Shown here: positions 7,542 through 33,036 of the stretch, piece by piece
How positions within the stretch are numbered: the stretch's first letter is position 1
How the letters are laid out: each line of letters opens with the position of its first letter
Source of the DNA: an uncultured Gammaproteobacteria bacterium
Lineage (GTDB): Bacteria > Pseudomonadota > Gammaproteobacteria > GCA-001735895
DNA length: 64,000 bases
Direction: 5' to 3'
NCBI GenBank assembly: GCA_963835795.1
Contig: CAWIHJ010000087.1
Location: forward strand, 735-64,734
Position numbers and translations under genes: made by a program
The notes under the pieces: generated by a model
What the model saw: the letters and a program-made list of their open reading frames with translations, nothing else
Database searches by the model: none
What the model was told of the DNA's origin: nothing

Positions 7542-8354
7542 TTGCCCCAACCAAAATACGACTACAGCGATCTGATCGCGGTGCAGGATATTATCCGGGT
7601 AGCGACCGAAAACTGTTTGTCAGTCTACTACACCCGCTCGACTGCCGACTACAAGAGTGATGGATCAATCGTCACCGATGCCGATTTAATGATGCAGCGC
7701 GAGTTGACCTTTGAACTCGCCGAGCGCTATCCCGACGTGGGCATGCTGGGCGAAGAAATCTGCGCAACACAACAACGCGAAGTCTTGTCGGGTAGCCGTG
7801 ATTTCTGGTGTCTTGATCCGATCGACGGCACCACAAACTTTCACGCCACCATGCCATTGTTCTCGGTTTCACTGGGCTTGATCAGGGACGGTGAAGTCGT
7901 GCTGGGTGTCGTTTACGACCCCAATCGCGGGGAATTTTTCGGTGCGATCCGCGATCAGGGCCTGTGGATCAATGGCGAAGCGCTGGTGCGCCCCCAGCAG
8001 CCAGAACGCCTCGGTGATTGCATTGCCTTTGTCGATTTCAAACGCCTGAACGACAGCATTAGCGCCAGACTGGCGCAGCAGCAGCCCTACAAGTCACAAC
8101 GAAATATCGGCACCTGCGCGCTGGAATGGGCATGGCTCGCCGCCGGGCGGGCTCACCTTCTGGTGCATGGCAGTGAACGTATCTGGGACTATTCCGCTGG
8201 CGAATTGCTGAACCGTGAGGGCGGTGGTTGCAGCGAAACCTTTGCAGGTGAGCCGGTCTATCAACAATCACTGGAACCGCGATCGGTGATCGCGACGAGT
8301 AACGGCAGCTTGTTTACGGCATGGAAGTCAATCATTCGCGAAACCGACCAGTAG
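7542..8354 (+). CDS. Inositol monophosphatase family protein
   Basis: VTDAD, LGEE, WCLDPIDGTTNF and WDYSAG motifs. Confidence 0.9.
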   Translation: MPQPKYDYSDLIAVQDIIRVATENCLSVYYTRSTADYKSDGSIVTDADLMMQRELTFELAERYPDVGMLGEEICATQQREVLSGSRDFWCLDPIDGTTNFHATMPLFSVSLGLIRDGEVVLGVVYDPNRGEFFGAIRDQGLWINGEALVRPQQPERLGDCIAFVDFKRLNDSISARLAQQQPYKSQRNIGTCALEWAWLAAGRAHLLVHGSERIWDYSAGELLNREGGGCSETFAGEPVYQQSLEPRSVIATSNGSLFTAWKSIIRETDQ

Positions 8355-11117: not shown

Positions 11118-12468
11118 CTACAATTCTCTGCCCGCCTGCCATTCGCGCAAGCGAATCACGCCACGGGCGCCCAGCGTCATGAACGGCTCCGGAAACAACC
11201 GGCTCGGCAATGCTTGCGCTTGATAGTCCGGCACCAGTCCAGGTTCATCCAGGTTAGCGGCAGCTTCGGCGGCAACGATACCGGCTACCAGGCCCGCGCG
11301 TGGCACCCAGTCCATTCTGGCAACAGGCACTGAACAACCCCGGCTGCAGTTCGCCGAGCGCCCAGACTTCGTTACGGCTAAGGCAAAGGCGGCCCGACCA
11401 GCAATATTCCATTTCCATGCGTGGCAACATCGGGAAACGTGCCTGGAAAGTGCGCCGATGATCGGCGGCAATGTCCTGCAGTCGATTCGACGGCAAGCGC
11501 AACGATGCTTCGTAGGTGCAGCGGTTACGAATCACCAGTCGCGTGCCGCCGTCGGAGCTGTCGATACGCCGCAAGGTCGAGCCGATTGGATCCGCCGGGG
11601 TAAAACCCCAGTTGGGTACTCCCCCAAGTGCGTCGATTTCAGCGTCGTCGAGTTTGCGCGTCATCGAACCGTAGAGGTTGATGTGCATCAGGCGGCGCCT
11701 GAAAAACCCGAAGCTTTCAATGAGGCCGTTGACCGCAAGAATGACGCGCTGCGCGCTTACCGAACCCTGTTTCGGTTCGCACCAGCCATCGATCCGCTTT
11801 GCGCTCGAGCGACTCTACGGCGGAATTTTCATACAGTTCAACGCGGTCGTGGTGGCACAGCGATGCGGCGAAGCTGCGCACAAAAAGGGCCGGTTGAATG
11901 ATCGCTGTGCCCGGGTGTGCGCAAGCCTCCCTGGTAATAGTCAGTACCACAGACCGCCTGCATGGCACTGGCATCCAGCAGATCGAAAGGTTCGCCGAGT
12001 TGGTCGAGGTGATGCGCGTAGGACGCATTGTGTCGATTGCCCACGTCGCTGGCCGCCGCGTTGATCTTGCCACGCACGGCGAAGGCGTCGTCGGGGAAAT
12101 TCATGCGTCCGAGCAAGTTCGCCAGCAAAGGCAATCGCCGCACGATTCATGCGAATGTTGCGCTTGTCTGCAGAATCGTCACCGGCATAACTGCCACTGG
12201 CAAGCGCGTGCGGCAAATCGATCATGAATCCGGAATTACGCCCTGCGGGGCCGCTGGCAACCTGCTGTGCTTCGACGATGACTATGCGCGCATCTGCGTC
12301 GATCTGGCGCAAGCGACGCGCAGCCGCAAGGCCGGCGAAACCGGCGCCGACCACCAGGTAATCACAATGAATATCCTGCGCGAGTGGAGGCTCGGGCTCA
12401 CGCGCGGGCAAAATAGCGTCCCAGCCGCTGCGCCCGAGATCAGCGGGTTTGGAATCAACCTTGATCAC
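11118..12468 (-). CDS. FAD-dependent oxidoreductase (DAO/PuuB-like), broken by several frameshifts
   Basis: Fragments in successive frames: DYLVVGAGFAGLAAA..GPAGRNSGFMIDLPH; HINLYGSMTR..WGFTPADPIGSTLRR..WSGRLCLSRN..CCQNGLG; FPEPFMTLGARGVIRLREWQAGREL*. Confidence 0.8.
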
Positions 12469-18816: not shown

Positions 18817-19530
18817 ATGGCTAACAGCGAACACCCCTTTTACATCATCGGACACCGCGGTGCGGCCGGTGAACGACTGGAAAACAGTCTCGACGGCTTC
18901 AAGCACGCATTGACGCTCGAAATCGATGCCATCGAACTCGACATTCACCAGCATTCCTCGGAACTCTGGGTATTTCACGATTACCAGCTGCAGCGGCTGA
19001 CCACCAGTAGCGGGCTATTTGCAGATCACCCCGACCCCGCCAGCATTCAATTGAACAACGGCGAGGCGATACCCCGCCTGCAACAGGTACTCGATCTCTA
19101 CTGGGGCAAGATGCCGGTAAATATCGAGATCAAAGGGGTGACGAATCCCGACTTGCTGCTCGAACTGCTGGCAGCCCAGCCCCCGTTGCCGCCCGAGGCG
19201 CCTGGCCTGCCGTGGATATTGATATCGTCGTTCAATCACCAGGCCTTGCTTGCGTTGCGACAACTGGATTGTCCCTGGCCACTGGCGCCGCTCAGTAGCG
19301 GCATCCCCCTGCAGTTTGACGTAGAGATTCAGCAGATCAAACCTTACTCCTGGAATTTTAACGACCATAACCTCGATTTCGCACAGGTTCGCTATTTGCA
19401 GGACCAGGGCGTGGCCTCGCTGGTTTACACGGTGAATGACCCGGAACGCGCGCAGTATCTAATGCAAAACGGAATTGCCGGGATATTTACCGACTTTCCC
19501 ACCGAAATGATCAAACTCAAGGCACGATGA
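18817..19530 (+). CDS. Glycerophosphodiester phosphodiesterase
   Basis: IIGHRGA..ENSL, IELDIH, VFHD, NIEIK, ISSFN, YTVND, GIFTDFP. Confidence 0.9.
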   Translation: MANSEHPFYIIGHRGAAGERLENSLDGFKHALTLEIDAIELDIHQHSSELWVFHDYQLQRLTTSSGLFADHPDPASIQLNNGEAIPRLQQVLDLYWGKMPVNIEIKGVTNPDLLLELLAAQPPLPPEAPGLPWILISSFNHQALLALRQLDCPWPLAPLSSGIPLQFDVEIQQIKPYSWNFNDHNLDFAQVRYLQDQGVASLVYTVNDPERAQYLMQNGIAGIFTDFPTEMIKLKAR

Positions 19531-19600
19531 ATGCGGCAATGCCTGCCGATCGCGCGCGTTCTGCGCTATCGCTGCGACTGCGCTGATGTACAATGCGCGC

Positions 19601-20431
19601 ATGGCTGAACTGGGACGATACAACACGCTGAAAATCATCCGCCGAGTCGATATCGGCGCCTATGTCGATGGTGGCGAACTGGGTGACATCCTGCTGCCGC
19701 GCAAATACGTGACCGACGCGATGCAGGTAGGCGATCAACTCGAATTGTTTGTTTACAACGACTCCGAGGACCGCTTCGTCGCCACGACGCTGCAGCCGAA
19801 GGCGCAGGTCGGCGAATGCGCCTACCTCAAGGTCGTCAGCACCAACCGCTACGGCGCGTTCATGGACTGGGGCTTGCCCAAGGATTTGCTGGTGCCGCGC
19901 AGTGAGCAGCAAAAGCCGATGCAGGAAGGTTACTCCTACATGGTGTACCCGTTCGTCGACCGCTCGACCCAGCGTATCGCCGGCTCTACCCGGCTCGAGC
20001 AGCAGCTGTCACTCGAAGCCGACCACTTCCGCGCCGGGCAGCCTGTGCAACTGCAGATCTACGCCAAAAGCGACCTCGGATTCAAGGCGGTGGTCGACGG
20101 ACTCTACCTCGGCCAGCTCTACGACAACGAGACCTTCCAGCACCTGCACTTTGGCGAAGCGCTGCCGGGTTACATCAAGCGCATGCGCAGCGACGGTCGC
20201 ATCGACCTGATGCTGTCGAAACCGTCACCGCAACAACGCGATCAGCTCGGCGACGCCATCATCGAGCATTTGCGCAGCCACGACGGTGTCTCGAAGTTGA
20301 CCGACAAAAGCCCACCCGACGACATTTACCAGACCTATGGCGTCAGCAAGGCGAACTACAAGAAAGCCCTCGGCCGCCTGTATAAACTTCGCCGTATTCT
20401 CATCGAAAAACACCAGGTCAAACTGCTGTGA
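19601..20431 (+). CDS. CvfB/YitL-family S1 RNA-binding protein
   Basis: GRYNTL..GAYVDGG..ILLP, GAFMDWGLPKDLLVP, C-terminal winged helix DKSPP..I..YGVSK..YKKALG.LYK. Confidence 0.88.
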   Translation: MAELGRYNTLKIIRRVDIGAYVDGGELGDILLPRKYVTDAMQVGDQLELFVYNDSEDRFVATTLQPKAQVGECAYLKVVSTNRYGAFMDWGLPKDLLVPRSEQQKPMQEGYSYMVYPFVDRSTQRIAGSTRLEQQLSLEADHFRAGQPVQLQIYAKSDLGFKAVVDGLYLGQLYDNETFQHLHFGEALPGYIKRMRSDGRIDLMLSKPSPQQRDQLGDAIIEHLRSHDGVSKLTDKSPPDDIYQTYGVSKANYKKALGRLYKLRRILIEKHQVKLL

Positions 20432-20472
20432 GGAAGATGCAGATCACCTCGACGTCGCTGCCGTGTTCGATC

Positions 20473-20490
20473 TTGTCATCAAAATGTAAC
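20473..20490 (+). promoter_or_regulatory. Pho box upstream of phoB
   Basis: TTGTCAT-CAAA-ATGTAAC matches the CTGTCAT-N4-CTGTCAT direct-repeat consensus. Confidence 0.75.
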
Positions 20491-20533
20491 AACCGCGGCC
20501 CAGGCTGAGACGGTTGTCTGCGCGGATTAAAGT

Positions 20534-21222
20534 ATGAATATTCTGGTTGTTGAAGACGATCGTGACATCCGCGAGATGGTTTGCCAGTCGCTGGCGCAAA
20601 ACGATTTTCTTACCATTGGCTGCCGCGACGTGCAGGAGGCCAAGCAGTCATTGCCGAGCAGAATCCGGATTGCCTGGTGGTCGACTGGATGTTGCCAGAC
20701 GGCTCCGGGGTCGAACTGATCCGCTGGATGCGACGCCAGCATCAATACCAGCAAATCCCGGTCTTGATGCTGACCGCGCGTGCGCAGGAAAGCGATATGA
20801 TTACCGGGCTGGACTCCGGTGCGGACGACTACCTGACCAAGCCGATGTCATTGCGAGAACTCAATGCGCGCGTCAAGGCACTGCTGCGCCGTCCGCCTGT
20901 CTACCAGGAGCAAAATGACATCGTGCAGGTTGGGCCGCTGAGCCTGAATTCCCGCACCCACGAGATCTTTGTCAACGAGGCACCGGTTGAATTAACCAAG
21001 ACGGAATTCAAACTGTTAAAGCTGTTTATGGGAAATTCCAAAAAAGTATTCAGTCGCGAGCAGATACTGGACGCGGTCTGGGGCGTCAATGTCTACCTCG
21101 GTGATCGCACCGTTGACGTGCATATTCTACGGCTGCGCAAATTGCTGAAAGCGCATGGCGTCGACGGCATGATTGAAACCGTCCGCGGAACCGGTTACCG
21201 GATTTCCCCTGAAACCGGCTAA
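20534..21222 (+). CDS. phoB: Phosphate regulon response regulator PhoB (one frameshift near 20646, likely sequencing error)
   Basis: ILVVEDD in one frame, then DWMLPDGSG..GADDYLTKP..DRTVDVHILRLRK..IETVRGTGY in the next; sits next to phoR/pst. Confidence 0.88.
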
Positions 21223-21240
21223 TCGGGGCCTGATCGCGTC

Positions 21241-22572
21241 ATGTCAAATATCTGGTCGACTGAAGCCTGGGCGATTGTCATCGCTTCCTGCGTGCTGATC
21301 CTGACAGGGGTATTGAGCGGCGAGTGGTTCATCGCCAGCCTGATCACGCTGGGATGTTATATCGCGTGGTTATACCAACGGCTGCTTAAGCTGGAACAAT
21401 GGATCAGGAAAGGCACTCGCACCAGCCAGGTCTACGAAGACCAGGGTTTCGTCGGCATCATCATCCGCCAGCTCTACCAGCAAAAGAAAACGTACAACCA
21501 GCGAAAGCGCCGAACCAAGCGCATCCTGCGTCGATTGAAGCAGAATATTTCGGCACTCCCTGACGCCACGGTGCTGCTCAATAGTGAATTCCAGATCGAG
21601 TGGTGTAACGAACCGGCCAGCTACCTGCTTAATCTGCGCTCGCCCCAGGATCTGGGTTATAAAATCAATAACATGATACGTGATCCGGTGTTCATGGCTT
21701 ACCTGAAGAATCCGGGCGACCGGGAATATATCGAAATCCAGTCTCCGATGGACGAAGACATAAGTATTCAGATCAAATTGGTATCGTTTAGTGGGAACAA
21801 GTTGCTGATGATCGCTAGAAATATAAGCGACCAGAAACAGCTGCAGAAGAGTTTGAAAAACTTCGTCGCCAATGCCTCGCATGAGCTGAAGTCTCCGATG
21901 ACGGTTATTTCGGGGCACCTGGAAATGCTCGAAGCCGAAGATAACCTGAGCGATACCGGTAAACGTTCGCTGCATACGGCACAGCGTCAGACCGAGCGTA
22001 TGAAAGAATTGATCCAGGGGCTGTTGCTGCTATCGCAGGTAGAAAGCTATCGCCTGGCAGCGGATGAAGGAGACCAGATTTCGGTCCCAGAGTTGATGGT
22101 CAACGTCGTGGCAGCACTCGAAAAATATTCAGATAAAGAACGCGTTCAGCTGGATTATGCGGACGACCTGATGTTACTGGGGGTTAAGGTCGAGATCGAG
22201 GGAATCTGTATCAACCTGGTAGAGAACGCGCTCAAATATACTGCTCCCGGCACAGTCATCCGGGTTAACTGGGAAGAAAATTTACGCGGTGAATACGTGT
22301 TCAGCGTCGAGGACCAGGGACCCGGCATCGAAGCGGAAGATATCTCAAAGATTAGCAAACGCTATTATCGTGGCGCAAAAAGCAGGGCCGAGACTACCGG
22401 TTCAGGGCTTGGCCTCGCAATCGTGCAGCATGCGGCGAGTAAGCATGGGGCGATATTCAAGATCGAAAGCGAGCCCGATAACGGCAGCCGCTTTAGCGTA
22501 ACTTTCCCCAGTTATCGCTGCATTCACGAACAAAAGCAGGTTGCCCGGGTCATTCGCCTGACCGACTACTAG
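21241..22572 (+). CDS. phoR: Phosphate regulon sensor kinase PhoR
   Basis: N-terminal TM helices, PAS-like ALPDA..IEWCN, H-box FVANASHELKSP, NLVENALKY, DQGPGI, GSGLGLAIV. Confidence 0.9.
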   Translation: MSNIWSTEAWAIVIASCVLILTGVLSGEWFIASLITLGCYIAWLYQRLLKLEQWIRKGTRTSQVYEDQGFVGIIIRQLYQQKKTYNQRKRRTKRILRRLKQNISALPDATVLLNSEFQIEWCNEPASYLLNLRSPQDLGYKINNMIRDPVFMAYLKNPGDREYIEIQSPMDEDISIQIKLVSFSGNKLLMIARNISDQKQLQKSLKNFVANASHELKSPMTVISGHLEMLEAEDNLSDTGKRSLHTAQRQTERMKELIQGLLLLSQVESYRLAADEGDQISVPELMVNVVAALEKYSDKERVQLDYADDLMLLGVKVEIEGICINLVENALKYTAPGTVIRVNWEENLRGEYVFSVEDQGPGIEAEDISKISKRYYRGAKSRAETTGSGLGLAIVQHAASKHGAIFKIESEPDNGSRFSVTFPSYRCIHEQKQVARVIRLTDY

Positions 22573-22697
22573 GACGCCTTTGTAGCGACGCAGCGGCAAG
22601 TTGGGAATGGTTCCTGACTTACCATCAACTGGATTAAATCTCGCGGCGGATTGACGAATTCCAGGATTTGTTGCCGATCATCATGGTTTTTAGAGTT

Positions 22698-22715
22698 TTG
22701 TAACATGAATGTCAT
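22698..22715 (+). promoter_or_regulatory. Pho box upstream of pstS
   Basis: TTGTAAC-ATGA-ATGTCAT, 11-bp-period direct repeat about 130 bp upstream of pstS. Confidence 0.7.
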
Positions 22716-22845
22716 ATTTATTGGCTTTAATGACATGGCTCGATTAGCGATGGTTTTAGCAAGCTCGGAATATTTATTAATCCGTTAGCGGCTTTCGCTT
22801 AATAATAAAACTATACCGAAAATCCATAGATAGAGGTCAGAGAAC

Positions 22846-23745
22846 ATGAAAGTTGGATATATCGTCGCATTCTCAGTGGTAACCGCCATTAGCATCAGTG
22901 GCCCGAGCCTGGCAGCAAATACCCTGATCCAGAACAAGGGCTCCGATACCCTGGTCAACGTGGCCCAGGCCTGGGCCGAAGAATATCCATCTGTAAATCC
23001 CGATGTTACGGTTGCGGTATCGGGCGGTGGCTCAGGAACCGGCATCGCGGCGATGATTAACGGTACCGTGGATATCGCCAACGCCAGCCGCAAGATGAAG
23101 GATAAAGAGTTACAAAAGGCCAAGGAATCGGGTCAGGACCCGGTTGAATTCGTGGTCGGTTTTGACGCCCTGGCCGTATTTATCCATGAAAACAATCCAG
23201 CCAAGACTTTTACTTTTAACCAGCTTGGCAAAATCTTCGGGCGCGGTGGCGATGCCACCAAGTGGTCCGACCTGGGACTCAGCGTGCCCGGTTGTAACAG
23301 TGATGAAATCGTTGTCGTCAGCCGGCAGAACAACTCAGGCACCTACGCTTATTTCAAGAGCTCGGTATTGAAAAGCGCCGCCGCAGCCGGTGTGATCTCA
23401 AAGGGCAGTTTTCGCCAGGGTACCCTGGACATGCACGGTTCCAAGGACGTGGTCGACCTGGTGGAGAAAACTCCCTGCGCGATTGGCTACAGTGGACTGG
23501 CTTATGCGACCGAACATTTGAAACTAGTCTGTATCGCAAAAGTAGAGGGAGAAGCCTGCATAATTCCAAGCGTCAAGACCGCCAGTGACCGCAGCTACCC
23601 AATCGCTCGCCCCCTGTTTATGTACACCAACGGTCAACCCAAAGGCGCGATTAAAGGTTACATGGACTGGATCCTGTCGGATGCAGGCCAATGTATTATG
23701 AAAAAGAAAGGTTACGCTACTGTCCGAGATGTCAGTTGCTCATAA
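22846..23745 (+). CDS. pstS: Phosphate ABC transporter substrate-binding protein
   Basis: Signal peptide, KGSDTL, GGGSGTGI, DIANASR, SRQNNSGT, YPIARPLFMY. Confidence 0.92.
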   Translation: MKVGYIVAFSVVTAISISGPSLAANTLIQNKGSDTLVNVAQAWAEEYPSVNPDVTVAVSGGGSGTGIAAMINGTVDIANASRKMKDKELQKAKESGQDPVEFVVGFDALAVFIHENNPAKTFTFNQLGKIFGRGGDATKWSDLGLSVPGCNSDEIVVVSRQNNSGTYAYFKSSVLKSAAAAGVISKGSFRQGTLDMHGSKDVVDLVEKTPCAIGYSGLAYATEHLKLVCIAKVEGEACIIPSVKTASDRSYPIARPLFMYTNGQPKGAIKGYMDWILSDAGQCIMKKKGYATVRDVSCS

Positions 23746-23783
23746 GGAGTTCTCTCCAATTAAACAGTTGCCGGTGAAAAGTT

Positions 23784-24863
23784 ATGTCTCATCTTGAAGA
23801 ACGCCTGGAACATGATTTAAACGAAATTCGTGATCAGATTGCAACCATGGGCTCCAGCGTTGAACAGGCGCTCGCAGGCGCATTTCGTGCCCTGCACGAG
23901 GGCGATGACAAACTTGCTTTCACCACAATCCTGTCCGACCTGCCGATAAACCGCCTGATGCGTAAGATCGATCGGACCTGTCACGCCTTTATCGCCGTGC
24001 ACCTGCCAAGCGCGGGGCATTTGCGATTTATCTCATCGGTTATTCGCGGCAATATCATACTCGAACGGATTGGCGACTACGCGGTAACCATTGCGCGCGA
24101 GTCGGTGCAGCTGGGTGATGTTCCGGAGGGCTATATGTCGACCGAACTGAAAAACATCAGCGACGAGGCCGTATCGGTTCTGAGTGAATCCATCAGTGCT
24201 TTCAATTCGTCGAATGCCGAACGCGCCCGGGCCGCGATAACCATGGCCGGGAAGGTCGAGCGCGAGATGGATGGCATTTATGCCGAACTGCTGGACAGCG
24301 CCGAGAAGAAGGGTGGCTGTAACCGCAATAGCATGATTTATCTCATCATTTTCACCCAGCTGAAGCGCATTTCCGACCAGGCAAAGAACCTTGCGGAAGA
24401 GGCCATTTTTATCGAAACCGGTGAGACCAAGAAACCGAAAGTCTACCGCATTCTGTTTCTCGATGAAGACAACAGCTGCCTCGGCCCGATGGCGGAGTTG
24501 ATTGCCAGCAAGATTTATCCCGACGCTGGCCAATATACGAGCGCCGGGGTTCACCCGGCCGACAGCCTGAATGCGAACATGGTGGCGTTCATGGAAACAC
24601 GCGGCTTTAATCTATCCAGTCTCGCGCCGCAAAAACTGGATTCGAGCCGTGAGTCGCTGTCGCAATACCATGTCATTGTCGGGCTGCATAAAAAAGTGCT
24701 CAAGACCGTGGTCAAGATACCGTTCCGCACGTCGGCGCTTAACTGGAAAGATGTCAAGGTTCCGCAAAATGATGACGTGGAAGCCTGGGAAACCTTGCAT
24801 AAGACCCTGGGGCTTCACATCAAGGAGTTGCTAACCCTGTTACGTGGCGACGAGGCCATGTGA
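23784..24863 (+). CDS. phoU: PhoU fused to a C-terminal degenerate LMW-PTP/ArsC-like domain
   Basis: PhoU repeats (..LERIGDYAVTIA; ..KRISDQAKNLAEE), then RILFLDEDNSCLGPMAE..SAGVHPA..M..RGFNLS (LMWPc fold with CX5R lost). Confidence 0.85.
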   Translation: MSHLEERLEHDLNEIRDQIATMGSSVEQALAGAFRALHEGDDKLAFTTILSDLPINRLMRKIDRTCHAFIAVHLPSAGHLRFISSVIRGNIILERIGDYAVTIARESVQLGDVPEGYMSTELKNISDEAVSVLSESISAFNSSNAERARAAITMAGKVEREMDGIYAELLDSAEKKGGCNRNSMIYLIIFTQLKRISDQAKNLAEEAIFIETGETKKPKVYRILFLDEDNSCLGPMAELIASKIYPDAGQYTSAGVHPADSLNANMVAFMETRGFNLSSLAPQKLDSSRESLSQYHVIVGLHKKVLKTVVKIPFRTSALNWKDVKVPQNDDVEAWETLHKTLGLHIKELLTLLRGDEAM

Positions 24864-24864
24864 G

Positions 24865-25797
24865 ATGGGTCAGTTGTCCGGACAGCAGGCGCGAAACCTG
24901 CCAGACATCAATCAGCGTAATGCTGACTGGTATATCGATAAAATAGTCCAGTATCTGGTTTTCCTGAGCGGTATATCCGCGATTATCCTGATTGTCGGCA
25001 TCTTCGTTTTCGTAACTGTCGAAGGTTTCGGCTTCCTGCTCGAAGATTTCAGTTTCAAGGAGTTTTTCCTGTCGCAGTGGTGGGAACCGACGGACGACGA
25101 TGAGCCCACTTACGGTATCCTGGCGTTGATTGCCGGTACCGCCAGCGTCACCGGCCTCGCGATGCTGGTGGCGATTCCGTTTTCTCTCGGCAGCGCCGTT
25201 TTCGTTGCCGAGTTTGCCACCGGCAAGACGCGCGAAACCCTGAAGGTTCTGATCGAGCTGCTGGCAGCGATCCCCTCGGTGGTCTGGGGTTTCATCGGAC
25301 TGTCGATCATGAACCCTCTGATCATAGACATCTTCGACGTCCCGGTGGGGCTGAATATCCTCAATGCCGGGATCATACTCGGATTGATGGCAGCCCCGAT
25401 CATGACCTCGATCTGCGAAGATGCGCTGAAGGCAGTGCCGGATCGCTATCGCGAGGCGGCGGAAGCCCTAGGTGGAACCCGTTGGCAGGTGATTTACAAA
25501 ACCGTGTTGCCGGCCGCCAAAAACGGTTTGCTGGGCGGCGTGCTGCTGGGCGTCGGTCGGGGTTTCGGCGAAACCATGGCGGTGCTGATGGCGACCGGGC
25601 ACGCGATCAACATGCCCGACAGCGTATTCGATTCGGTGCGTGCACTTACCGCGACGATCGCCGCGGAACTGGGCGAAACCGCGGTTGGATCACCGCACTA
25701 CCAGGCATTGTTCACGATCGGAATCTTTCTGTTCATGATCACCTTCATCATCAACCTGACTGCAGACCTCATTGTCCGCGGCATACGTCAGAGCTAG
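24865..25797 (+). CDS. pstC: Phosphate ABC transporter permease PstC
   Basis: ELLAAIPSVVWG, EDALKAVP..REAAEALG, GRGFGETMAVLM. Confidence 0.93.
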   Translation: MGQLSGQQARNLPDINQRNADWYIDKIVQYLVFLSGISAIILIVGIFVFVTVEGFGFLLEDFSFKEFFLSQWWEPTDDDEPTYGILALIAGTASVTGLAMLVAIPFSLGSAVFVAEFATGKTRETLKVLIELLAAIPSVVWGFIGLSIMNPLIIDIFDVPVGLNILNAGIILGLMAAPIMTSICEDALKAVPDRYREAAEALGGTRWQVIYKTVLPAAKNGLLGGVLLGVGRGFGETMAVLMATGHAINMPDSVFDSVRALTATIAAELGETAVGSPHYQALFTIGIFLFMITFIINLTADLIVRGIRQS

Positions 25798-25805
25798 GCA
25801 AAATT

Positions 25806-26702
25806 ATGGCCACTACAGCTATCATCCAAAACCAGTTCCTTGAAACCGATCTTAACGTCCGCGCCAAGCGCACCGAGACCCTGTTTCGTATCCTGTTCAT
25901 GATGATGGCGGGCCTACTGATATTACCGGTGTTGGTCATATTGACCACCCTGATCGTCAAGGGTAGCAGCATGATTTCCCTCGAATTCCTGTTCGGCAAT
26001 CCGACCAATGGCATGACCGAAGGAGGTATCTTCCCTGCCCTGCTCGGCACCATCTGGCTGGTTGGCGTGGCGCTGGTGATATCGGTTCCGGTGGGCGTCG
26101 CGGCAGCGGTGTACCTCAGTGAGTATGCACCGAATAACTGGTTCACGCGCGCCATCAACCTCGCGATTATCAACCTCGCAGGTGTGCCCTCGATCGTGCA
26201 TGCGCTATTTGGCGTTGGCGCCTTCGTGATCTTTTTTGGTTTCGGCACCAGCATTCTGGCTGCCAGCATGACGCTCGCAGTCATGACGCTGCCGGTCGTC
26301 ATCGTGGCGACCCGCGAATCCCTACAGGCCGTGCCGCATGCCTTCCGGGAAGCCTGCTGGAACATGGGTGCCACGCGCTGGCAAACCATTCGGCGCGTGG
26401 TATTGCCTAATTCAGTCAGCGGTATTCTGACCGGTGTCATTCTCGAGGTTTCGCGCACCACGGGTGAAACCGCACCGATCATGTTCACCGGGGCCGCGTT
26501 CTTTATCCCGGTGTTACCCGAGAGCGTGTTCGATCAAACCATGGCCCTGTCCCTGCATTTGTTCGTGGTTGCAACCCAGGTACCCGGTGTCCCCGACGCG
26601 TTACCCTACGGTGTCGCGCTGGTCCTGATCTCGATGGTTTTGCTGATGAACAGCGCCTCGATTGCGTTGCGTATGCACCTGCGCGGGAAGAAAAAATGGT
26701 AA
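25806..26702 (+). CDS. pstA: Phosphate ABC transporter permease PstA
   Basis: GGIFPALLGT, AVYLSEYA, LAGVPSIV, REACWNMGATRWQ, GETAPI. Confidence 0.93.
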   Translation: MATTAIIQNQFLETDLNVRAKRTETLFRILFMMMAGLLILPVLVILTTLIVKGSSMISLEFLFGNPTNGMTEGGIFPALLGTIWLVGVALVISVPVGVAAAVYLSEYAPNNWFTRAINLAIINLAGVPSIVHALFGVGAFVIFFGFGTSILAASMTLAVMTLPVVIVATRESLQAVPHAFREACWNMGATRWQTIRRVVLPNSVSGILTGVILEVSRTTGETAPIMFTGAAFFIPVLPESVFDQTMALSLHLFVVATQVPGVPDALPYGVALVLISMVLLMNSASIALRMHLRGKKKW

Positions 26703-27499
26703 CCGCGACGCCAAACATGGCAAAGGTTGCGGATACTCGGGAATCCGCGGTCAAGCTCGAGGTTCGTGACGTCGCGATCCGCTACGGCGCGGACACGGCG
26801 ATTTCAGGGATTACCCTGGACGTCAGGGAAAACGAGATTTTCGGTATTATCGGCCCGGCCAACGCCGGCAAGACATCATTCCTCAAAGCCCTGAACCGGA
26901 TGAATGATTTCAATACGAATATGTCTGTCGACGGCGAGATTCTGTTTGAAGGCACAAATATCCGTGACGTGCGCAATGTGTATGCGCTGCGCAGTCGCAT
27001 CGGGGTTGTTTTCCCGCTACCCGTAGGGCTGCCGCTCACCGTTTACGAAAACGTCGCTTTTGTTCCGCGTTTGCGAGGGATTCGAGAGAAAGCCGAACTC
27101 AATGTCATCGTCGAGCGTTGTCTGACCCGTGCGGCCCTGTGGGACGAAGTCAAGGATCGACTGGACTCGCTAGGTAGCCTGTTATCCGGTGGCCAGCAGC
27201 AGCGATTGACGATCGCGCGGGCACTGTCGCAAGAGCCGGAACTGCTGATGCTGGACGAGTTTTCAATCGCGGTAGACCCGGTTACAACGATGCGCATCGA
27301 AGACGTACTTAAGGAACTGAAATCGGAAATGAGCATTATCCTGGTGACCAACCTGGTGCAACAGGCGCGTCGCCTTGCCGATCGCACCGCATTCTTCCTC
27401 AGCGGGGAATGCGTCGAGATCGGCGAAACCGGGGCGATGTTTTCCGGCCAGGTAAAAGATTCGCGTACCGGTGATTACATTGAAGGCCGCTTCGGGTGA
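26696..27499 (+). CDS. pstB: Phosphate ABC ATPase, copy 1 (degenerate Q-loop and H-switch, intact LSGGQ)
   Basis: GPANAGKT, LNRM, VFPLP, AALWDEVKDRL, LSGGQQQRL, MLDEFSIAVDP, VTNL. Confidence 0.85.
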   Translation: MVTATPNMAKVADTRESAVKLEVRDVAIRYGADTAISGITLDVRENEIFGIIGPANAGKTSFLKALNRMNDFNTNMSVDGEILFEGTNIRDVRNVYALRSRIGVVFPLPVGLPLTVYENVAFVPRLRGIREKAELNVIVERCLTRAALWDEVKDRLDSLGSLLSGGQQQRLTIARALSQEPELLMLDEFSIAVDPVTTMRIEDVLKELKSEMSIILVTNLVQQARRLADRTAFFLSGECVEIGETGAMFSGQVKDSRTGDYIEGRFG

Positions 27500-28314
27500 T
27501 GGACGCTGAAATCGATATGAACACCGAGCAAAGCGAGGTCGAAACGAACTCAGAACTGGCGATCCGTACGGCAGACCTGAATCTCTGGTACGGCACATTC
27601 CAGGCACTTTACGACGTCAACCTCGAGATCAAGCAAGGCAGGGTCACGTCGTTGATTGGGCCTTCTGGCTGCGGCAAATCCACTTTTTTACGCAGCGTAA
27701 ACCGGATTAACGAACGCCTTGGATACGTGAGCATTAATGGCTCCATCGACGTGTTCGGCAATAATATTTACGCGCCGGAAGTGGAGTTGGTCCAGGTGCG
27801 CAAACAAGTTGGCATGGTATTTCAACGACCCAATCCGCTGCCAACATCGATCCGCGAGAATATCCTGTTCGGCCACAAACTGCATAATCGGGACAGGAAA
27901 TACAGCCGCGACGACGAGGACGAGATTGTTGAGGATTCACTACGCCAGGTATTACTCTGGGACAAGGTGAAGGATCATCTGAAACGCAGGGCGACCGAAT
28001 TATCCCTGGAAGAGCAGCAAAAATTATGTATCGCACGCCTGCTGCCGGTTAAGCCGCTCGTGCTATTAATGGACGAACCCTGCTCTGCGCTCGATCCTAA
28101 AGGAACCGCTGCGGTCGAGGAACTGATCTGGGAGTTGCGCGGCAAATACTCGATTCTGGTCGTGACCCACAACATGGCCCAGGCCCGCCGCGCCAGCGAG
28201 GAGTGTATTTTCATGCTGATGGGCAAGGTTATCGAGCACACCGATACCGCTGATATGTTCGTTACTCCGATCCACCAGGAAACGGCGGATTATATTGAAG
28301 GCCGATACGGGTAG
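27496..28314 (+). CDS. pstB: Phosphate ABC ATPase, copy 2 (intact Walker A/B, Q-loop, H-switch; degenerate signature)
   Basis: GPSGCGKST, MVFQRPNP, LSLEEQQKL, MDEPCSALDP, VTHNMAQA, YIEGRYG. Confidence 0.88.
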   Translation: MMDAEIDMNTEQSEVETNSELAIRTADLNLWYGTFQALYDVNLEIKQGRVTSLIGPSGCGKSTFLRSVNRINERLGYVSINGSIDVFGNNIYAPEVELVQVRKQVGMVFQRPNPLPTSIRENILFGHKLHNRDRKYSRDDEDEIVEDSLRQVLLWDKVKDHLKRRATELSLEEQQKLCIARLLPVKPLVLLMDEPCSALDPKGTAAVEELIWELRGKYSILVVTHNMAQARRASEECIFMLMGKVIEHTDTADMFVTPIHQETADYIEGRYG

Positions 28315-28534
28315 TCGCTGATACTTTAGCAGTCCTTCCCGTAAGTTCGACAACATTAATCTACGCTGGCAAAATGAAGTTCGTCATTAGCGCCGATACC
28401 GCGGGCCATTTCTAATTACACCTTGAACCCTTGCGTAATTAAATCGCTGCATTTCTACCTTTTAATATCCCGGGTTGACGATTAAAATAGCCCGATTACT
28501 TTGAATTTACCCAGCCCTGTAGTTCTGGAGGTAC

Positions 28535-29752
28535 GTGGCTAAAACACTTGTAGAAGACCTTGAGGACAAGACCCGCATACCGTTCCTGAGAGGTATCCTG
28601 ATTCGTAGCCTGCAGGATTCAGCCGTCGCATTTGAAGAAGCCTCCCAGATTGCGACCGATATCCGTAAAGAGCTTGCCGACACCGAATTGATTTCGACGA
28701 CAAATCTGGGCCAGATAGTGCTGGACCGCCTTAAATCGATGGGCAACGAGAATAGCGCCGTTCGATACGAAAATCGTAATATCCCGCTCACCATTCAGGT
28801 CGAGCATCAAGATGGGCGCATGTCGCCATTTTCCCGGCAAGAGTTTCGGCACAGTCTCGAGACCATAGGCCTGAAACCGAGAGAAGCGGATTCCATAGTC
28901 CTGATCCTACTGGAGCACCTGGGAAACAAATCGATCGAAACAGTTAGATCCAATCAACTGGCGATGTTGATCTATCGTTACCTGCGCCAGTCAAGCAAAC
29001 TCGGTCCTGCCGTTGCACATCGCTGGCTGGTATGGCACGACTTTGTCAATAGCGGCCGGGAATTGATCTATCTCATCGGCGGTACCGCCGGTTGTGGCAA
29101 AAGCTCCACTGCCAATATGCTGGCCAGCCGGCTCCAGATTGTGAGCACCCAGTCCACTGACATGCTGCGCGAAGTTATGCGCACCATGATTCCCGAAAAG
29201 ATGATGCCCGTGCTGCACCAATCGTCCTTTACCGCATGGCAGGGCTTGTCTGGGCCGCTGCAAAAGAATGGTGAGGTATCGGAAGCACTGTTGGTGCAGG
29301 GTTACCGCAGCCAGGCCGATTTACTTTCGCTAGCAATCGAGGCCGTGATCGATCGGGCAACACGTGAACACGTTTCGCTGGTGCTGGAAGGCGTGCACAT
29401 ACACCCTGCTTTCATGGAACGGCTGCAGGCCGAAACCGATGTCGTGGTGATACCCATCATGCTGGGTGTGTTGAAACGCAATCATTTGCAACAAAGAATC
29501 AAGCGCCGCAGCACCAATTTGCCGGACCGGGGAGCCAGGAATTACCTACAGCATTTCAATGAAATCTGGCGCTTGCAATCCTACCTGCTGTCCGAGGCCG
29601 ACCGCGCCAATATTCACATTGTAGTGAATGAAAGCAGGGACAAGACATTCACTGAAATTATGCGTTTTACGATTGCCACCCTGGCCAGGACCTTCGATAA
29701 CACCCCGGAAAAGGTTTTCGGTGTTAAAGCCTTCGTCGACGACAGGGATTAA
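28535..29752 (+). CDS. ATP-cone-containing 2-phosphoglycerate kinase-like P-loop kinase
   Basis: Two ATP-cone-like segments (PFLRGILIRSL; PFSRQEFRHSL), then LIGGTAGCGKSS..LASRL..STDMLREVMR..LHQSSF..VLEGVHIHP..Y..HFNEIW.LQ.YL; GGAGG RBS. Confidence 0.8.
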   Translation: MAKTLVEDLEDKTRIPFLRGILIRSLQDSAVAFEEASQIATDIRKELADTELISTTNLGQIVLDRLKSMGNENSAVRYENRNIPLTIQVEHQDGRMSPFSRQEFRHSLETIGLKPREADSIVLILLEHLGNKSIETVRSNQLAMLIYRYLRQSSKLGPAVAHRWLVWHDFVNSGRELIYLIGGTAGCGKSSTANMLASRLQIVSTQSTDMLREVMRTMIPEKMMPVLHQSSFTAWQGLSGPLQKNGEVSEALLVQGYRSQADLLSLAIEAVIDRATREHVSLVLEGVHIHPAFMERLQAETDVVVIPIMLGVLKRNHLQQRIKRRSTNLPDRGARNYLQHFNEIWRLQSYLLSEADRANIHIVVNESRDKTFTEIMRFTIATLARTFDNTPEKVFGVKAFVDDRD

Positions 29753-29800
29753 AGAAAACAGGATTCGCCCAGGGTAAGGCGCAAGGTCATCCGGGGGCAG

Positions 29801-30445
29801 TCAGGAATTTGAACCCGGGTTGAAAGGTATCTTGATGACACGATCACGCACAAACCCTGAAGGCTTGCCAAGTTCCTTGTAACGTAGGCAATTTTTACCC
29901 TTGAACAGGAAATCTCCGATATAGCGGAATGATATTCGTCGCGCCAGATTGTCCGCGTACTCCAGTCCGAGAAAATGACAAATAAGACCTCTGATCACTC
30001 CGGCGTGTGCGACAACGAGTGCGGACTGCTCTGGATGTGCCTCGACCAGTGCCAACACATAACGAACACTGCGTTGCTGCATCTGACGAAAACTCTCGCC
30101 GTTCGGATAAACCATGTCAGGATTCTTCTTGTGCTGGGGGTAATTATCGATAATCCATGACTTTCGTTTTTGCTGAAATTCCCCGTAGTTGACCTCGTTC
30201 AATTCGGCCGAGCTATCGACGGTTGATATACCCAGAACGCGGGCATGCAATTTCGCCGTCTGCCGGGAGCGCTCCAGGTCACTCGAATAAACCGCGTCGA
30301 AGTCGACCCCCTGTTCGGTCAAAAGCGCGTCGACGAAATCGAAATCGGCCTTCCAGTCCTGGCAGGGAGGTGAATCTCCCCAGCCCAGGACCCTGCCGTC
30401 ATCGTTGGTTTGAGTCTTATAGTGTCGGATAAGAATAATGCGCAT
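29801..30445 (-). CDS. Histidine phosphatase (phosphoglycerate mutase) family protein
   Basis: ILIRHYKT (RHG variant), YSSDLERSRQTA, LNEVNYGEF, PNGES, VVAHAGVIR. Confidence 0.85.
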   Translation of the reverse strand: MRIILIRHYKTQTNDDGRVLGWGDSPPCQDWKADFDFVDALLTEQGVDFDAVYSSDLERSRQTAKLHARVLGISTVDSSAELNEVNYGEFQQKRKSWIIDNYPQHKKNPDMVYPNGESFRQMQQRSVRYVLALVEAHPEQSALVVAHAGVIRGLICHFLGLEYADNLARRISFRYIGDFLFKGKNCLRYKELGKPSGFVRDRVIKIPFNPGSNS

Positions 30446-30534
30446 TCTCGCAGCATAGACATTTAGTCCGGCATTGGAAAGCCCACTTGACGGTTAACCA
30501 GGGACTATGCTCCCCGTTAACGCCAGGATCAGAG

Positions 30535-31146
30535 TCAGCCGGGGTAACGTGCCTCGAGTCCCCGGTAGACATCGTCACGAAACCGGGCACTGTCGCTGTC
30601 AAGGGAGGTCAGCAATTCTGCCAGGTGCTCATTGTCTTCCCTGCCATCCCAGGTCTTGATATAGCTGCCGTCCTTGTAGCCGTGATCCTGGCGGAAAAAG
30701 TTTAAAACATTCTTGCCAACATAAGTTCGATAGAGCTGGTCGAAGTCCATTTCGATGAGCGCCATGATGTTGGCAAAATCCGAAAAATGCATCGATTGTT
30801 GTGCAATCGTCGATTGCGCCATGATCTCGATCGCGCTGCGGATGTCTTCGCATTGGCGAGGTTCGGATAACTCGGTCTCGATACGTGCAGCGGCGGCAGC
30901 GTTATCGCTTTCCAGTAACAGGTAATCGCTCATCGCGAAATGCAGAATATCGACCAGCTCCAGTCGCACCTGCTCAAGATCGGGTTGCTGGTGCTTCCAC
31001 CACTTCCAGCCGTAGTGATCGAGCATCTCCGCACACTCGGTCCAGATCGCCCGGTACCAGGCATTGCCGGCGTTGCGCCAGTCCGGATTGACGCGCGCAT
31101 TCATCGCATCCTGCATTTCCAGCATGATCAGCAATTGTGTCTTCAT
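30535..31146 (-). CDS. Dimeric all-alpha dUTP diphosphatase
   Basis: WKWWK, LELVDILHF, YVGKNVLNFFRQDHGYKDGSY.K.WDGREDNE. Confidence 0.9.
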   Translation of the reverse strand: MKTQLLIMLEMQDAMNARVNPDWRNAGNAWYRAIWTECAEMLDHYGWKWWKHQQPDLEQVRLELVDILHFAMSDYLLLESDNAAAAARIETELSEPRQCEDIRSAIEIMAQSTIAQQSMHFSDFANIMALIEMDFDQLYRTYVGKNVLNFFRQDHGYKDGSYIKTWDGREDNEHLAELLTSLDSDSARFRDDVYRGLEARYPG

Positions 31147-31179
31147 CGAGTTAACTCACAATATTCAATGTCAGCCACG

Positions 31180-33036
31180 TTACATACCGTATAACGCCGG
31201 CAACAGAAAGGTCAGTATCAGCCACATCAGCAGCACCAGGGGTAAACCGACGCGCACAAAATCCGTGAAGCGATAGTTTCCGGCATTCATCACCAGCAGA
31301 TTGGTCTGGTAAGCCATCGGCGTGGCGAAGCTCATGTTGGCGCCGAACAGCACCGCCAGCACGAAGGGTTCCGGGGGCTGGCCCAGTTGCTGGGCAATGC
31401 CGATCGCGATCGGCGTGCCGATAACCGCGGCCGCATTATTGGACACCACGTTGGTGAGTAGCGCCATCATCACCAGCAGGCCGCTCAAGATAAAGGTTGG
31501 CGACAGGCCTGCGGTGACATCGACGTAGGCACTGGCAATCATCAGGGCGCCGCCGGTCTCGACCATCGCAGTCCCCATCGCGAGGCTGGTGGCGATGATC
31601 AGGATCACCGGCGCGCTCAGTGCGCGCGTGGTGTCGTACCACTTGAGACAGCCGGTCACCAACAACAACAGAACCCCGCACAGGGCGCTGACTGCAATCG
31701 GCAGCAGGCCAAACGCGGCGGTTACAATGATCCCCAGCATGATCACTACCGCGAGCGGCGCCTTCGCCGAAATGGGTAGCGCCGATTTGGCATCCAGCAC
31801 CAGCAGGTTACGGCTCGATTTAAGTCGATCAATGTTGCTGATCGAACCCTGAACCAGCAGCACGTCACCCGAGTGCAGGCGCGTTTCCTCGGTGTGCTCG
31901 GTTCCCTGGCTGTTCGCCCATTTATTGGAACGAAACATCGCCAGTACCATCAACTGGTAGCGCTCACGGAAACGGATGTTGGCCAGGGTGCGCCCGTCCA
32001 GCGTCGAGCCCGGCACCACCACTACCTCGGCAATCTGCTGCGTCGAATCCTGCAGCGGGTGTTCTTCGTCGACCGGCACATCACCCGAGAACAGACTGGC
32101 ACCCAGTATCGTTTCCAGTTCCTTGAGGCGATCCGGCGTACTCTTGACGATGATGCGATCGCCGCTGCGCAGCACCAGGTCGGGCATCGGTATCAGCTTG
32201 TTCTTCTTTTCGCCGCGCACGATATGCACCACTTCCAGGTTGCCACCGCACAGCGCAATCAGTTCGGACAACTCTTTTTGGTTGGCCACGCTGTTATCGT
32301 CGATGCGTAATTGCGCGGTAAACAGGCGCGGCGACGTCGTCGGCAGGCGTGCATCGCGGTGCGGCAGCAGCAATGGCGCAATCAACCACAGGTAAAGAAT
32401 GGCGACACTGCCCGCGATCAGCGCCGGCACGATAAAATCAAACATGCCGAACTGACGCATGCCGAGATCGGCGGCAACGGCAACCACCAGCAGGTTGGTC
32501 GAAGTGCCGATAGTGGTGGCCATACCGCCGACCGAGGTCGCCAGTCCCATCGGCATCAGCGTCGCGGATGCTGGCGTACCGGTCTTCAGCGATACGCTGA
32601 TCAGGATGGGCAGCAGCAGGATTACCACCGGCGTGTTGTTGACGAAGGCGCTCAGGACCGCGCCCAGCACCAGCGTAAACAGGAAGGTCAATTTCGGGGC
32701 CTGAGTCCAGTGCCGCGCAAGCCAGCGCCCGACGGGTTCCAGCGCACCGGTGCGCACCAGCGCCTGGCCGGCAATCATCAACGAGCATACCGCCACCAGC
32801 GCCTGGTGACCGAAGCCGAGAAACAGGTCGCTCGCCTGCAATAGTCCACCGCTGCCCCGGTAAGGAAATAATTCAAACAACAGCGTCAGCATCACCAGGA
32901 TCGACAGGCTGGAGGTCGCCAGCGGCACACGCTCGCTGGCAAACAGCACGAGCGCCAGAACCACCAGGGCCATCACCGCGTAGGCATGAAAATCAGAGCT
33001 GGTTACCATCGCATCCATGGCCGGGGAGTTTAACAT
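31180..33036 (-). CDS. SLC13/DASS-family permease with TrkA-C domains
   Basis: SAFVNNTPVV, TIGTSTNLLV, two RCK_C-like segments, TNVVSNNAAA, SFATPMAYQTN. Confidence 0.9.
   Translation of the reverse strand: MLNSPAMDAMVTSSDFHAYAVMALVVLALVLFASERVPLATSSLSILVMLTLLFELFPYRGSGGLLQASDLFLGFGHQALVAVCSLMIAGQALVRTGALEPVGRWLARHWTQAPKLTFLFTLVLGAVLSAFVNNTPVVILLLPILISVSLKTGTPASATLMPMGLATSVGGMATTIGTSTNLLVVAVAADLGMRQFGMFDFIVPALIAGSVAILYLWLIAPLLLPHRDARLPTTSPRLFTAQLRIDDNSVANQKELSELIALCGGNLEVVHIVRGEKKNKLIPMPDLVLRSGDRIIVKSTPDRLKELETILGASLFSGDVPVDEEHPLQDSTQQIAEVVVVPGSTLDGRTLANIRFRERYQLMVLAMFRSNKWANSQGTEHTEETRLHSGDVLLVQGSISNIDRLKSSRNLLVLDAKSALPISAKAPLAVVIMLGIIVTAAFGLLPIAVSALCGVLLLLVTGCLKWYDTTRALSAPVILIIATSLAMGTAMVETGGALMIASAYVDVTAGLSPTFILSGLLVMMALLTNVVSNNAAAVIGTPIAIGIAQQLGQPPEPFVLAVLFGANMSFATPMAYQTNLLVMNAGNYRFTDFVRVGLPLVLLMWLILTFLLPALYGM

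Follow-up and report, generated by a model that had tools for sequence, protein, structure and literature searches.

A candidate variant of the Pst phosphate importer with a complementary PstB pair, an internal PhoU fusion and an associated kinase and phosphatase

Background

The closest described relative of the system examined here is the canonical PstSCAB-PhoU/PhoBR system of Escherichia coli and Salmonella. Three papers present PhoU as a bridge from the transporter to the PAS domain of PhoR (PMC13577022, PMC9239213, PMC11389368). A 2024 study describes the phosphorus signal of Pst, PhoU and PhoR as intracellular and unidentified (PMC11389368). A further point of reference is the pst operon of Enterococcus faecalis, which carries two adjacent, non-equivalent pstB genes (PMC12096839). 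Here we analyse a stretch of 64,000 nucleotides (the window) from contig CAWIHJ010000087.1 of an uncultured gammaproteobacterium. It carries a pst locus built from the same families as the canonical system (PstS, PstC, PstA, PstB, PhoU, PhoR and PhoB), and it has Pho boxes as well.

We favour, with moderate confidence, the view that this locus belongs to a distinct, horizontally spread subtype of Pho-regulated phosphate ATP-binding cassette (ABC) importer. In this subtype two diverged PstB proteins would form a heterodimer, PhoU would carry a non-catalytic domain, and a kinase and a phosphatase would be linked to the transporter. The parts are members of known families and the system is clearly of the Pst/PhoU kind, yet their combination is apparently undescribed.

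Organization and conservation of the variant cassette

A prediction made earlier from the sequence alone (the original prediction) had listed the genes in the order phoB-phoR-pstS-phoU::LMWPc-pstC-pstA-pstB1-pstB2, followed by a kinase gene and a phosphatase gene. All of them were recovered in that order when the listing of open reading frames (ORFs) was combined with Pfam and NCBIfam scans. LMWPc denotes the low-molecular-weight (LMW) phosphatase family. Coordinates are positions in the window.

20474..20490, plus strand: Pho-box-like direct repeat upstream of phoB; exact TGTMAYN5TGTMAY match
20534..21222, plus strand: phoB response regulator, split by a 1-base gap near 20650; best match TIGR02154 PhoB
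21241..22572, plus strand: phoR sensor histidine kinase; Pfam PhoR N-terminal domain, HisKA and HATPase_c
22699..22715, plus strand: Pho-box-like direct repeat upstream of pstS; exact TGTMAYN5TGTMAY match
22846..23745, plus strand: pstS periplasmic phosphate-binding protein; TIGR02136 231.4 bits, above the cut-off of 206.6
23784..24863, plus strand: phoU fused to an LMWPc/ArsC-like domain, 359 residues; PF01895 84.5 bits, PF01451 31.0 bits against a cut-off of 23.2
24844..25797, plus strand: pstC permease, start overlapping the end of phoU; TIGR02138 279 bits against a cut-off of 196.45
~25806..26702, plus strand: pstA permease, start codon inferred; TIGR00974 260 bits against a cut-off of 193.45
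26696..27499, plus strand: pstB1 ATPase subunit with a degenerate catalytic side; TIGR00972 278.4 bits, below the cut-off of 343.2
27496..28314, plus strand: pstB2 ATPase subunit with a degenerate signature; TIGR00972 312.0 bits, below the cut-off of 343.2
28535..29752, plus strand: ATP-cone P-loop kinase of the 2-phosphoglycerate-kinase family; NF003259 255.8 bits against a cut-off of 343
29801..30445, minus strand: branch 1 histidine phosphatase, transcribed towards the kinase gene; PF00300 112.8 bits against 21.7

From phoU to pstB2 the coding regions abut or overlap, pstB1 and pstB2 by 4 bases. The start of pstA was placed at the ATG at 25806, which lies inside the ORF 25482-26702. For phoR the best NCBIfam model is TIGR02966, at 308 bits with a cut-off of 334.

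A scan of one genome per species yielded 80 loci with full-length matches to the PhoU fusion, at 42-85% identity. The scan confirmed 541 stretches in total, a number that may include ordinary PhoU proteins because the search peptides lie in the PhoU part; the analysis is confined to the 80 loci. In a large protein collection, full-length relatives of the fusion extend down to 52% identity among the 120 clusters listed, and some are annotated by their sources as plain PhoU. Judged by record titles, gammaproteobacterial carriers comprise uncultured Gammaproteobacteria, Candidatus Thiodiazotropha, tubeworm symbionts, Sedimenticolaceae, Chromatiaceae, Halioglobus and Arenicellales. Titles of the remaining records name Accumulibacter, Acidobacteriota (Vicinamibacteria and Thermoanaerobaculia), Rhodothermales and a Planctomycetaceae genome.

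The gene order of the window proved to be general. A pstS gene lies immediately upstream of the fusion in all 72 loci with room to show it, which extends to the wider family the predicted placement of phoU between pstS and pstC rather than last. Downstream, pstC, pstA, pstB1 and pstB2 follow in order in 61 of 63 loci with room, and both exceptions have runs of N right after pstC (11898-11997 in locus L014 and 12303-12324 in locus L022). The prediction that several non-canonical parts co-occur was borne out, since the fusion, the gene order and the complementary degeneracy of PstB1 and PstB2 are found together in every locus that is long enough. The position of phoBR is less constant. These genes lie upstream only in close relatives of the window; in other loci they are downstream or missing from the locus. 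In a class-wide sample of 200 genomes, one for each other gammaproteobacterial family, the PstB1 type occurs in two.

Individual genomes indicate how the variant relates to the ordinary transporter. No second pst system was found in the window genome, which is 79% complete and has no other PstB-like gene above 240 bits; its sole other PhoU domain is part of a Na/Pi-cotransporter fusion. Comparison of this genome with 18 other species of the genus gave five genomes with the variant only (the window's included), five with only an ordinary adjacent pstB-phoU pair, two with both and seven with neither. Two of the genus genomes without a detected fusion gene have contigs that end inside the cassette. 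Thus, the variant can stand in for the canonical system. Completeness is 97% for G205, 94% for G216 and 92% for G210 and G218, four of the species in which neither system was found. A Halioglobus metagenome-assembled genome presents a mixed arrangement (L027, 1656-16464), in which the kinase and phosphatase genes are flanked by an ordinary pstSCAB operon (minus strand) and by the variant cassette (plus strand). An ordinary phoU-phoR-phoB set follows.

Complementary degeneration of PstB1 and PstB2

The original prediction described the PstB pair as half dead, and the motif states agree with what it claimed. In 66 of 66 PstB1 sequences Pro stands where the Q-loop Gln would be and Asn where the H-loop His would be; Walker A and the Asp-Glu of Walker B are retained, and the signature is an intact LSGGQQQRL. 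PstB2 has the opposite pattern in 65 of 65 sequences. Its Walker A, Q-loop, Walker B and H-loop are canonical, and its signature reads LSLE[EQA]QQKL; the window protein has LSLEEQQK in place of LSGGQ. All motifs are intact in 14 ordinary PstB proteins from related genomes, a set from which two mis-picked ORFs were excluded. PstB1 and PstB2 are 34% identical to each other.

According to a review, both domains of such ATPases contribute to a nucleotide site: one supplies Walker A, Walker B, the Q-loop and the H-loop, and its partner supplies the signature (PMC7756269). Because each site is shared between two domains in this way, the losses of PstB1 and PstB2 fall into the same site. The pattern of a degenerate site is found here, with a degenerate signature contributed by PstB2 and an impaired catalytic side by PstB1. 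The catalytic Glu of Walker B is not replaced at this site, as PstB1 keeps Asp-Glu in all sequences. On these motifs a heterodimer is predicted to have one consensus and one degenerate site, and either homodimer would have no intact site. We infer that PstB1 and PstB2 form a heterodimer and that it is catalytically asymmetric.

A quick maximum-likelihood tree places both proteins inside PstB. The PstB1 sequences group together with 100% support and the PstB2 sequences with 96%, each as a single clade on a long stem. Because each is a single supported clade and the internal branching of the two is similar, the tree points to one origin and subsequent spread of the whole cassette, including spread across phyla.

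A PhoU protein with a predicted non-catalytic ArsC-like domain

The fusion protein consists of a PhoU half (approximately residues 1-214) and an extra domain (approximately residues 215-359, encoded by 24426-24863). The PhoU half has two PF01895 stretches and matches TIGR02135 at 133.3 bits, just above the cut-off of 130.25. All 26 sequences of one alignment share its acidic motif residues E94, D98 and D198.

LMW phosphatases carry the catalytic P-loop motif CX5R(S/T), which the extra domain lacks. An Asp occupies the position of the catalytic Cys in every sequence of three alignments (17/17 in A1, 15/15 in A3 and 26/26 in A6), and the P-loop Arg is absent, being replaced by Leu in the window fusion. 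Nor was the redox cysteine pair of ArsC found, with no Cys aligned at these positions in the ArsC alignment and none conserved in A6. A profile of the domain nevertheless matches chains of thioredoxin-type ArsC best (E ~3e-11) and does so over nearly the whole length of ArsC, whereas tyrosine phosphatases are matched weakly. The designation pseudo-phosphatase in the original prediction agrees with the loss of the catalytic Cys and Arg, but the domain stands nearer to thioredoxin-type ArsC than to tyrosine phosphatases. At the level of a lead, the top ESM Atlas clusters are LMWPc/ArsC at 0.84-0.86.

Searched alone against 1.84 billion cluster representatives, the extra domain matched 268 clusters. 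Most of the 150 matches listed cover approximately residues 213-360 of proteins about 355 residues long, and most of the others are shorter and may be fragments. This domain of about 145 residues is thus found almost only as the C-terminus of PhoU. Its distribution and its lost residues suggest a dedicated PhoU appendage with a non-catalytic role. An alternative assignment to a HAD-like or receiver-like P-loop (hhhhDxDxS) was rejected, as the first Asp alone is constant across the wider family, with different residues at the second position.

Kinase and phosphatase genes associated with the cassette

Downstream of pstB2 in the window, a kinase gene faces a histidine phosphatase gene. The kinase has an ATP-cone domain (PF03477) at residues 88-168, followed by a P-loop core. 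Conservation across 15 homologues extends to its Walker A (all 15), QSTD and EGVH motifs. The original prediction had called this protein 2-phosphoglycerate-kinase-like. The ATP-cone and the best-matching family (NF003259) agree with that description, but the score is below the family cut-off, and a second, weaker ATP-cone-like segment at approximately residues 6-79 has to be added. No solved structure was found that matches the kinase beyond its P-loop. The phosphatase has an Arg-His pair at residues 7-8 of its translation, and its nearest solved relatives are CobC, PhoE, dPGM and FBPase-2. It is not a CobC at equivalog level (TIGR03162 96.4 against 162.9).

Both genes track the cassette across genomes. 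Whole genomes were searched for 50 of the 80 loci (L016-L067 without L022 and L054). The kinase is present in 47 of these 50 cassette genomes and in 6 of 200 genomes of the class-wide sample, a contrast that is descriptive and overstates independence, many of the compared genomes being mutually related. The six include both cassette carriers of the sample, one of which is the same genome as that of locus L067. Co-occurrence across genomes had been named beforehand as the test of the original prediction, and the constituents did travel together, in the cassette counts given above as in this contrast. The kinase was also found in four of five further cassette genomes, at 11.5, 14, 41 and 490 kb from the cassette. 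Phosphatase orthologues (47-63% identity) occur in 28 of the 50 cassette genomes and in none of the 200 sampled genomes. According to the listed coordinates, the phosphatase lies within 5 kb of a kinase homologue in 12 of these 28. In nine genomes the kinase match contains one in-frame stop (G224, G230, G232, G235, G236, G243, G246, G255 and G260), which may reflect a natural stop read through at the end of the alignment or broken genes.

Of the 37 loci with full flanks, 15 have a kinase homologue no more than 10 kb from the cassette (23 of 80 overall), and 7 have the phosphatase at such a distance. Positions and orientations vary; in distant lineages the kinase is found 1-10 kb upstream or downstream, on either strand. 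Within the genus, the kinase is present in 7 of 7 variant genomes and in none of 5 genomes that have only the ordinary system, and additionally in G202. In this last genome (L118, G202:C127, 848-3223) the kinase and phosphatase genes are intact, and directly before them stand a fragment of phoB and the final 21 codons of pstB2. It seems that the pst cassette was deleted there and the kinase/phosphatase pair kept.

Four genomes of the class sample have the kinase without the variant Pst system (L112, L113, L114 and L115). In one of them, the kinase gene directly follows an ordinary pstC-pstA-pstB-phoU set, with CHAD and His_Phos_1 genes near. Another has it beside PPK2, PhoU_div, a Pit-type transporter, His_Phos_1 and CHAD, and a third has it between a Pit/PhoU_div pair and PPX. 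In the fourth (G053, L114:3062-5614, plus strand) the kinase is fused to an archaeal-type cofactor-independent phosphoglycerate mutase and adjoins PPX, Pit and PhoU_div. The same kinase-mutase fusion occurs in a Vicinamibacteria locus that does carry the variant, just past pstB2 on the opposite strand (L062:14634-17108, minus strand). These fusion proteins are 850 (L114) and 824 (L062) residues long.

Because the kinase sits among Pit, PhoU_div, PPK2, PPX and CHAD genes where the variant is missing, it would belong to phosphate and polyphosphate homeostasis more generally. The idea that the kinase and phosphatase are part of the system is supported by their enrichment in cassette genomes, but the kinase is not specific to the Pst variant. 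The fusion to a mutase and the kinship of the partner phosphatase with phosphoglycerate mutases make a phosphoglycerate the most likely substrate of the kinase.

Proposed mechanism and alternative explanations

In the arrangement proposed here, PstS would deliver phosphate to PstC and PstA, and the motor would require both PstB1 and PstB2, as an obligate heterodimer in which one ATP site is consensus and the other degenerate. The consensus site would combine Walker A, Q-loop, Walker B and H-loop of PstB2 with LSGGQ of PstB1. The degenerate site would combine the PstB1 pocket, which lacks the Gln and the His, with LSLEEQQK of PstB2. It probably binds ATP and hydrolyses it poorly, and could serve as an ATP-holding structural or regulatory site. 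The ArsC/LMWPc-like domain of PhoU would be a binding or regulatory module rather than an enzyme, and the fusion would keep the usual role of PhoU in coupling the transporter to PhoR and PhoB. The kinase and phosphatase would be tied functionally to the variant and to phosphate homeostasis, most likely making and removing a bisphosphorylated glycerate such as 2,3-bisphosphoglycerate. The original prediction had suggested along similar lines that one ATPase site and the extra PhoU domain could act as sensors instead of catalysts, in connection with a cycle of a phosphorylated metabolite; this part of it remains conjectural.

A more specific version, which we consider a long shot, is that PhoU uses its dead ArsC-like domain as a receptor for an intracellular phosphometabolite, for example 2,3-bisphosphoglycerate. 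The kinase and phosphatase would set the level of this metabolite according to the energy and phosphorus status of the cell. Its binding, together with the ATP-holding PstB site, would then gate both transport and PhoR signalling. If this were true, the long-sought cytoplasmic signal of phosphorus status would be encoded beside its sensor.

Several observations weigh against the reading of these genes as one Pho-regulated system with an asymmetric motor. PstB1 keeps the Walker A Lys and Thr and the Walker B Asp-Glu, so its site may hydrolyse ATP. Neither PstB protein reaches the curated PstB cut-off (278.4 and 312.0 against 343.2), although PstB is still their best family. The kinase was not found in 3 of the 50 cassette genomes or in the Accumulibacter genome, and a phosphatase orthologue was not found in 22 of the 50 at the threshold used. 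The relatedness of many compared genomes, mentioned above, counts on the same side. The kinase falls short of the curated cut-offs for 2-phosphoglycerate kinases (NF003259 255.8 against 343; NF008994 221.9 against 603) and also matches a mevalonate-3-phosphate 5-kinase model, which makes its substrate uncertain. When one mismatch is allowed, the Pho-box pattern has 4 matches in the window with 1.81 expected, and none precedes the kinase or phosphatase gene. Finally, phoB is frameshifted in the assembly, so this regulator may not be intact in the window organism.

Other explanations account for parts of these data. PstB1 and PstB2 might be partly redundant ATPases, each working as a homodimer, with no obligate heterodimer; this has been proposed for tandem pstB genes in Firmicutes. 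Such genes are found in E. faecalis, where an excess of PstB2 is reported to replace PstB1 (PMC12096839). Both E. faecalis paralogues keep Walker A, LSGGQ and the H-loop, whereas the losses seen here are complementary and invariant. A PstB2 homodimer would have two sites with degenerate signatures and a PstB1 homodimer two sites without the Gln and the His; the heterodimer alone would restore a full site. Furthermore, pstB1 and pstB2 are always adjacent, and in the window they overlap by the 4 bases already mentioned; we judge redundancy to be quite improbable. It is more improbable still that the cassette handles another oxyanion, such as arsenate or phosphite, and that the ArsC-like domain marks an arsenic function. 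Arsenate is an analogue of phosphate, and the closest solved relatives of the extra domain are arsenate reductases. However, this domain has neither the nucleophilic Cys nor the Arg, and the redox cysteines found further downstream in ArsC are missing from it too. PstS, PstC and PstA all exceed curated cut-offs for phosphate transporters. Pho boxes and phoBR accompany the cassette, the variant is the only Pst-like system found in several genomes, and a Pfam scan identified no ars gene among the neighbouring ORFs at 18817-33036.

The kinase and phosphatase could also be passengers on the same mobile block, with no functional tie to phosphate uptake. Within the genus the whole block from phoB to the CitMHS permease gene is syntenic, so that adjacency there could be inherited, and the window has no Pho box ahead of the kinase gene. 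This explanation is nevertheless rather unlikely, because the kinase of distant lineages lies on either side of the cassette, on either strand and at 1-10 kb, or elsewhere at 11-41 kb, and because it is so much more frequent in cassette genomes than in the background sample. In genomes without the cassette it still resides among phosphate and polyphosphate genes, and in G202 the pair has been kept where the pst genes were deleted. A less radical alternative accepts the tie to phosphate homeostasis but assigns the kinase a substrate other than phosphoglycerate, such as inositol or another polyol phosphate, a polyphosphate-related compound or a protein. This is a possibility to be taken seriously, if not the one we would expect. 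The sub-threshold scores and the mevalonate-3-phosphate 5-kinase match leave room for it, no solved structure informs the substrate pocket, and plant relatives of the kinase family are reported to affect phytate and total phosphorus. Fusion of the kinase to a cofactor-independent phosphoglycerate mutase in two lineages speaks for a phosphoglycerate instead, as does the membership of phosphoglycerate mutases in the superfamily of the partner phosphatase.

If the interpretation of a linked importer, PhoU appendage and enzyme pair is correct, it has practical consequences. The two ATP sites would be genetically separated, and roles in transport and in signalling could be mutated independently. 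A PhoU protein with an added domain of a ligand-binding type offers a handle on phosphorus sensing, and a kinase/phosphatase pair that tracks the system offers a further one. The placement of the kinase among Pit, PhoU_div, PPK2, PPX and CHAD genes gives this family a testable assignment to phosphate homeostasis. Carriers include sulfur-oxidising symbionts, sediment bacteria and Accumulibacter, and the variant may thus bear on phosphorus cycling.

Pho boxes, phoB and neighbouring genes

Pho boxes were predicted before phoB and pstS, and the window analysis agrees. The pattern TGTMAYN5TGTMAY has exactly two matches in the 64 kb, at 20474 and 22699, where 0.05 are expected, and two matches were reached in none of 100 shuffles. 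In a scan for promoters and terminators, the number of sites was not above that in shuffled sequences.

The predicted phoB gene is indeed present before phoR, but it is split by the 1-base gap. Its first ~40 codons are read from the ATG at 20534 and the remainder lies in another frame; TIGR02154 scores 247 bits over the C-terminal 213 amino acids in the NCBIfam scan. Alignment with five relatives indicates a single missing base near 20650. Contigs from two public sediment runs (X1 and X2) carry one more C after 20650; the site is also covered by a third run (X3), which lacks this additional base. These contigs differ from the window elsewhere too, and they therefore represent relatives rather than the same strain. 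On another contig of the same genome (L095, G000:C50:22000-38000), three genes are split between frames within 16 kb, at approximately 2372-3981, 5821-6649 and 7293-8618. They encode a thiamine pyrophosphate enzyme, a quinolinate phosphoribosyltransferase and the Na/Pi-cotransporter-PhoU fusion. Given these three split genes, indel errors are probably common in this assembly. The break in phoB may be genuine, or it may be an error of the assembly.

The locus is preceded by genes for GDPD and CvfB (18817-20431). Downstream (30535-33036) are a gene of the dimeric dUTPase family and one for a CitMHS permease with TrkA_C domains. These flanking genes are syntenic only in close relatives (L007-L015, L116 and L117) and therefore fall outside the conserved cassette.

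Comparison with known systems

Our literature search found no paper that describes a PhoU-LMWPc/ArsC fusion or a PstB pair with a degenerate site, or that links a bacterial ATP-cone 2-phosphoglycerate-kinase homologue to Pst, and none on a bacterial role of the kinase family. A full-text search likewise found no described case of a degenerate site in a Pst system. What is apparently new to the literature is the conjunction of three features: the importer has an asymmetric and putatively obligate PstB pair, its phoU gene is internal and encodes a dead ArsC-like domain, and a kinase and a phosphatase track the system.

The canonical Pst system differs from the variant in having one pstB gene instead of two diverged ones with complementary losses of catalytic motifs. 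Its phoU gene comes last, whereas that of the variant lies between pstS and pstC and encodes an additional dead ArsC-like domain of 145 residues. The tandem pstB genes of E. faecalis resemble those of the variant in number and adjacency only to a point. The E. faecalis proteins are ~60% identical and retain Walker A, LSGGQ and the H-loop (PMC12096839), but the variant proteins share 34% identity and have each lost different motifs.

For the ATPase pair, a further parallel is offered by heterodimeric ABC exporters of the TM287/288, TAP1/2 and CFTR class. These also unite an impaired H-loop side with a degenerate signature from the partner and have a consensus second site (PMC7756269). TM287/288-type proteins are type I exporters with fused transmembrane domains, however, while the variant is a binding-protein-dependent importer with separate ATPase subunits. 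The degenerate sites differ as well. That of the variant retains the Walker B Glu and has lost the Q-loop Gln instead.

The extra PhoU domain shares its LMWPc match and its near-full-length ArsC alignment with the fold of thioredoxin-coupled ArsC and LMW phosphatases. It departs from ArsC in the substitution of Asp for Cys and in the absence of the P-loop Arg and the redox cysteines.

The enzyme 6-phosphofructo-2-kinase/fructose-2,6-bisphosphatase likewise joins a P-loop kinase to a histidine phosphatase from the superfamily of the variant's phosphatase, and it sets the level of a bisphosphorylated signal metabolite. The variant pair is unlike this enzyme in being encoded by separate genes and in having a kinase of another family with ATP-cone domains. 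The likeness is one of logic and not of descent. By family, the best match of the kinase domain is the archaeal 2-phosphoglycerate kinase of the cyclic 2,3-diphosphoglycerate pathway, which is described in two reports (PMC10690619; 10.1101/2025.02.21.639460). Compared with the archaeal enzyme, the window kinase has a sub-cut-off score and belongs to a bacterial, mesophilic setting in which its gene context is phosphate transport.

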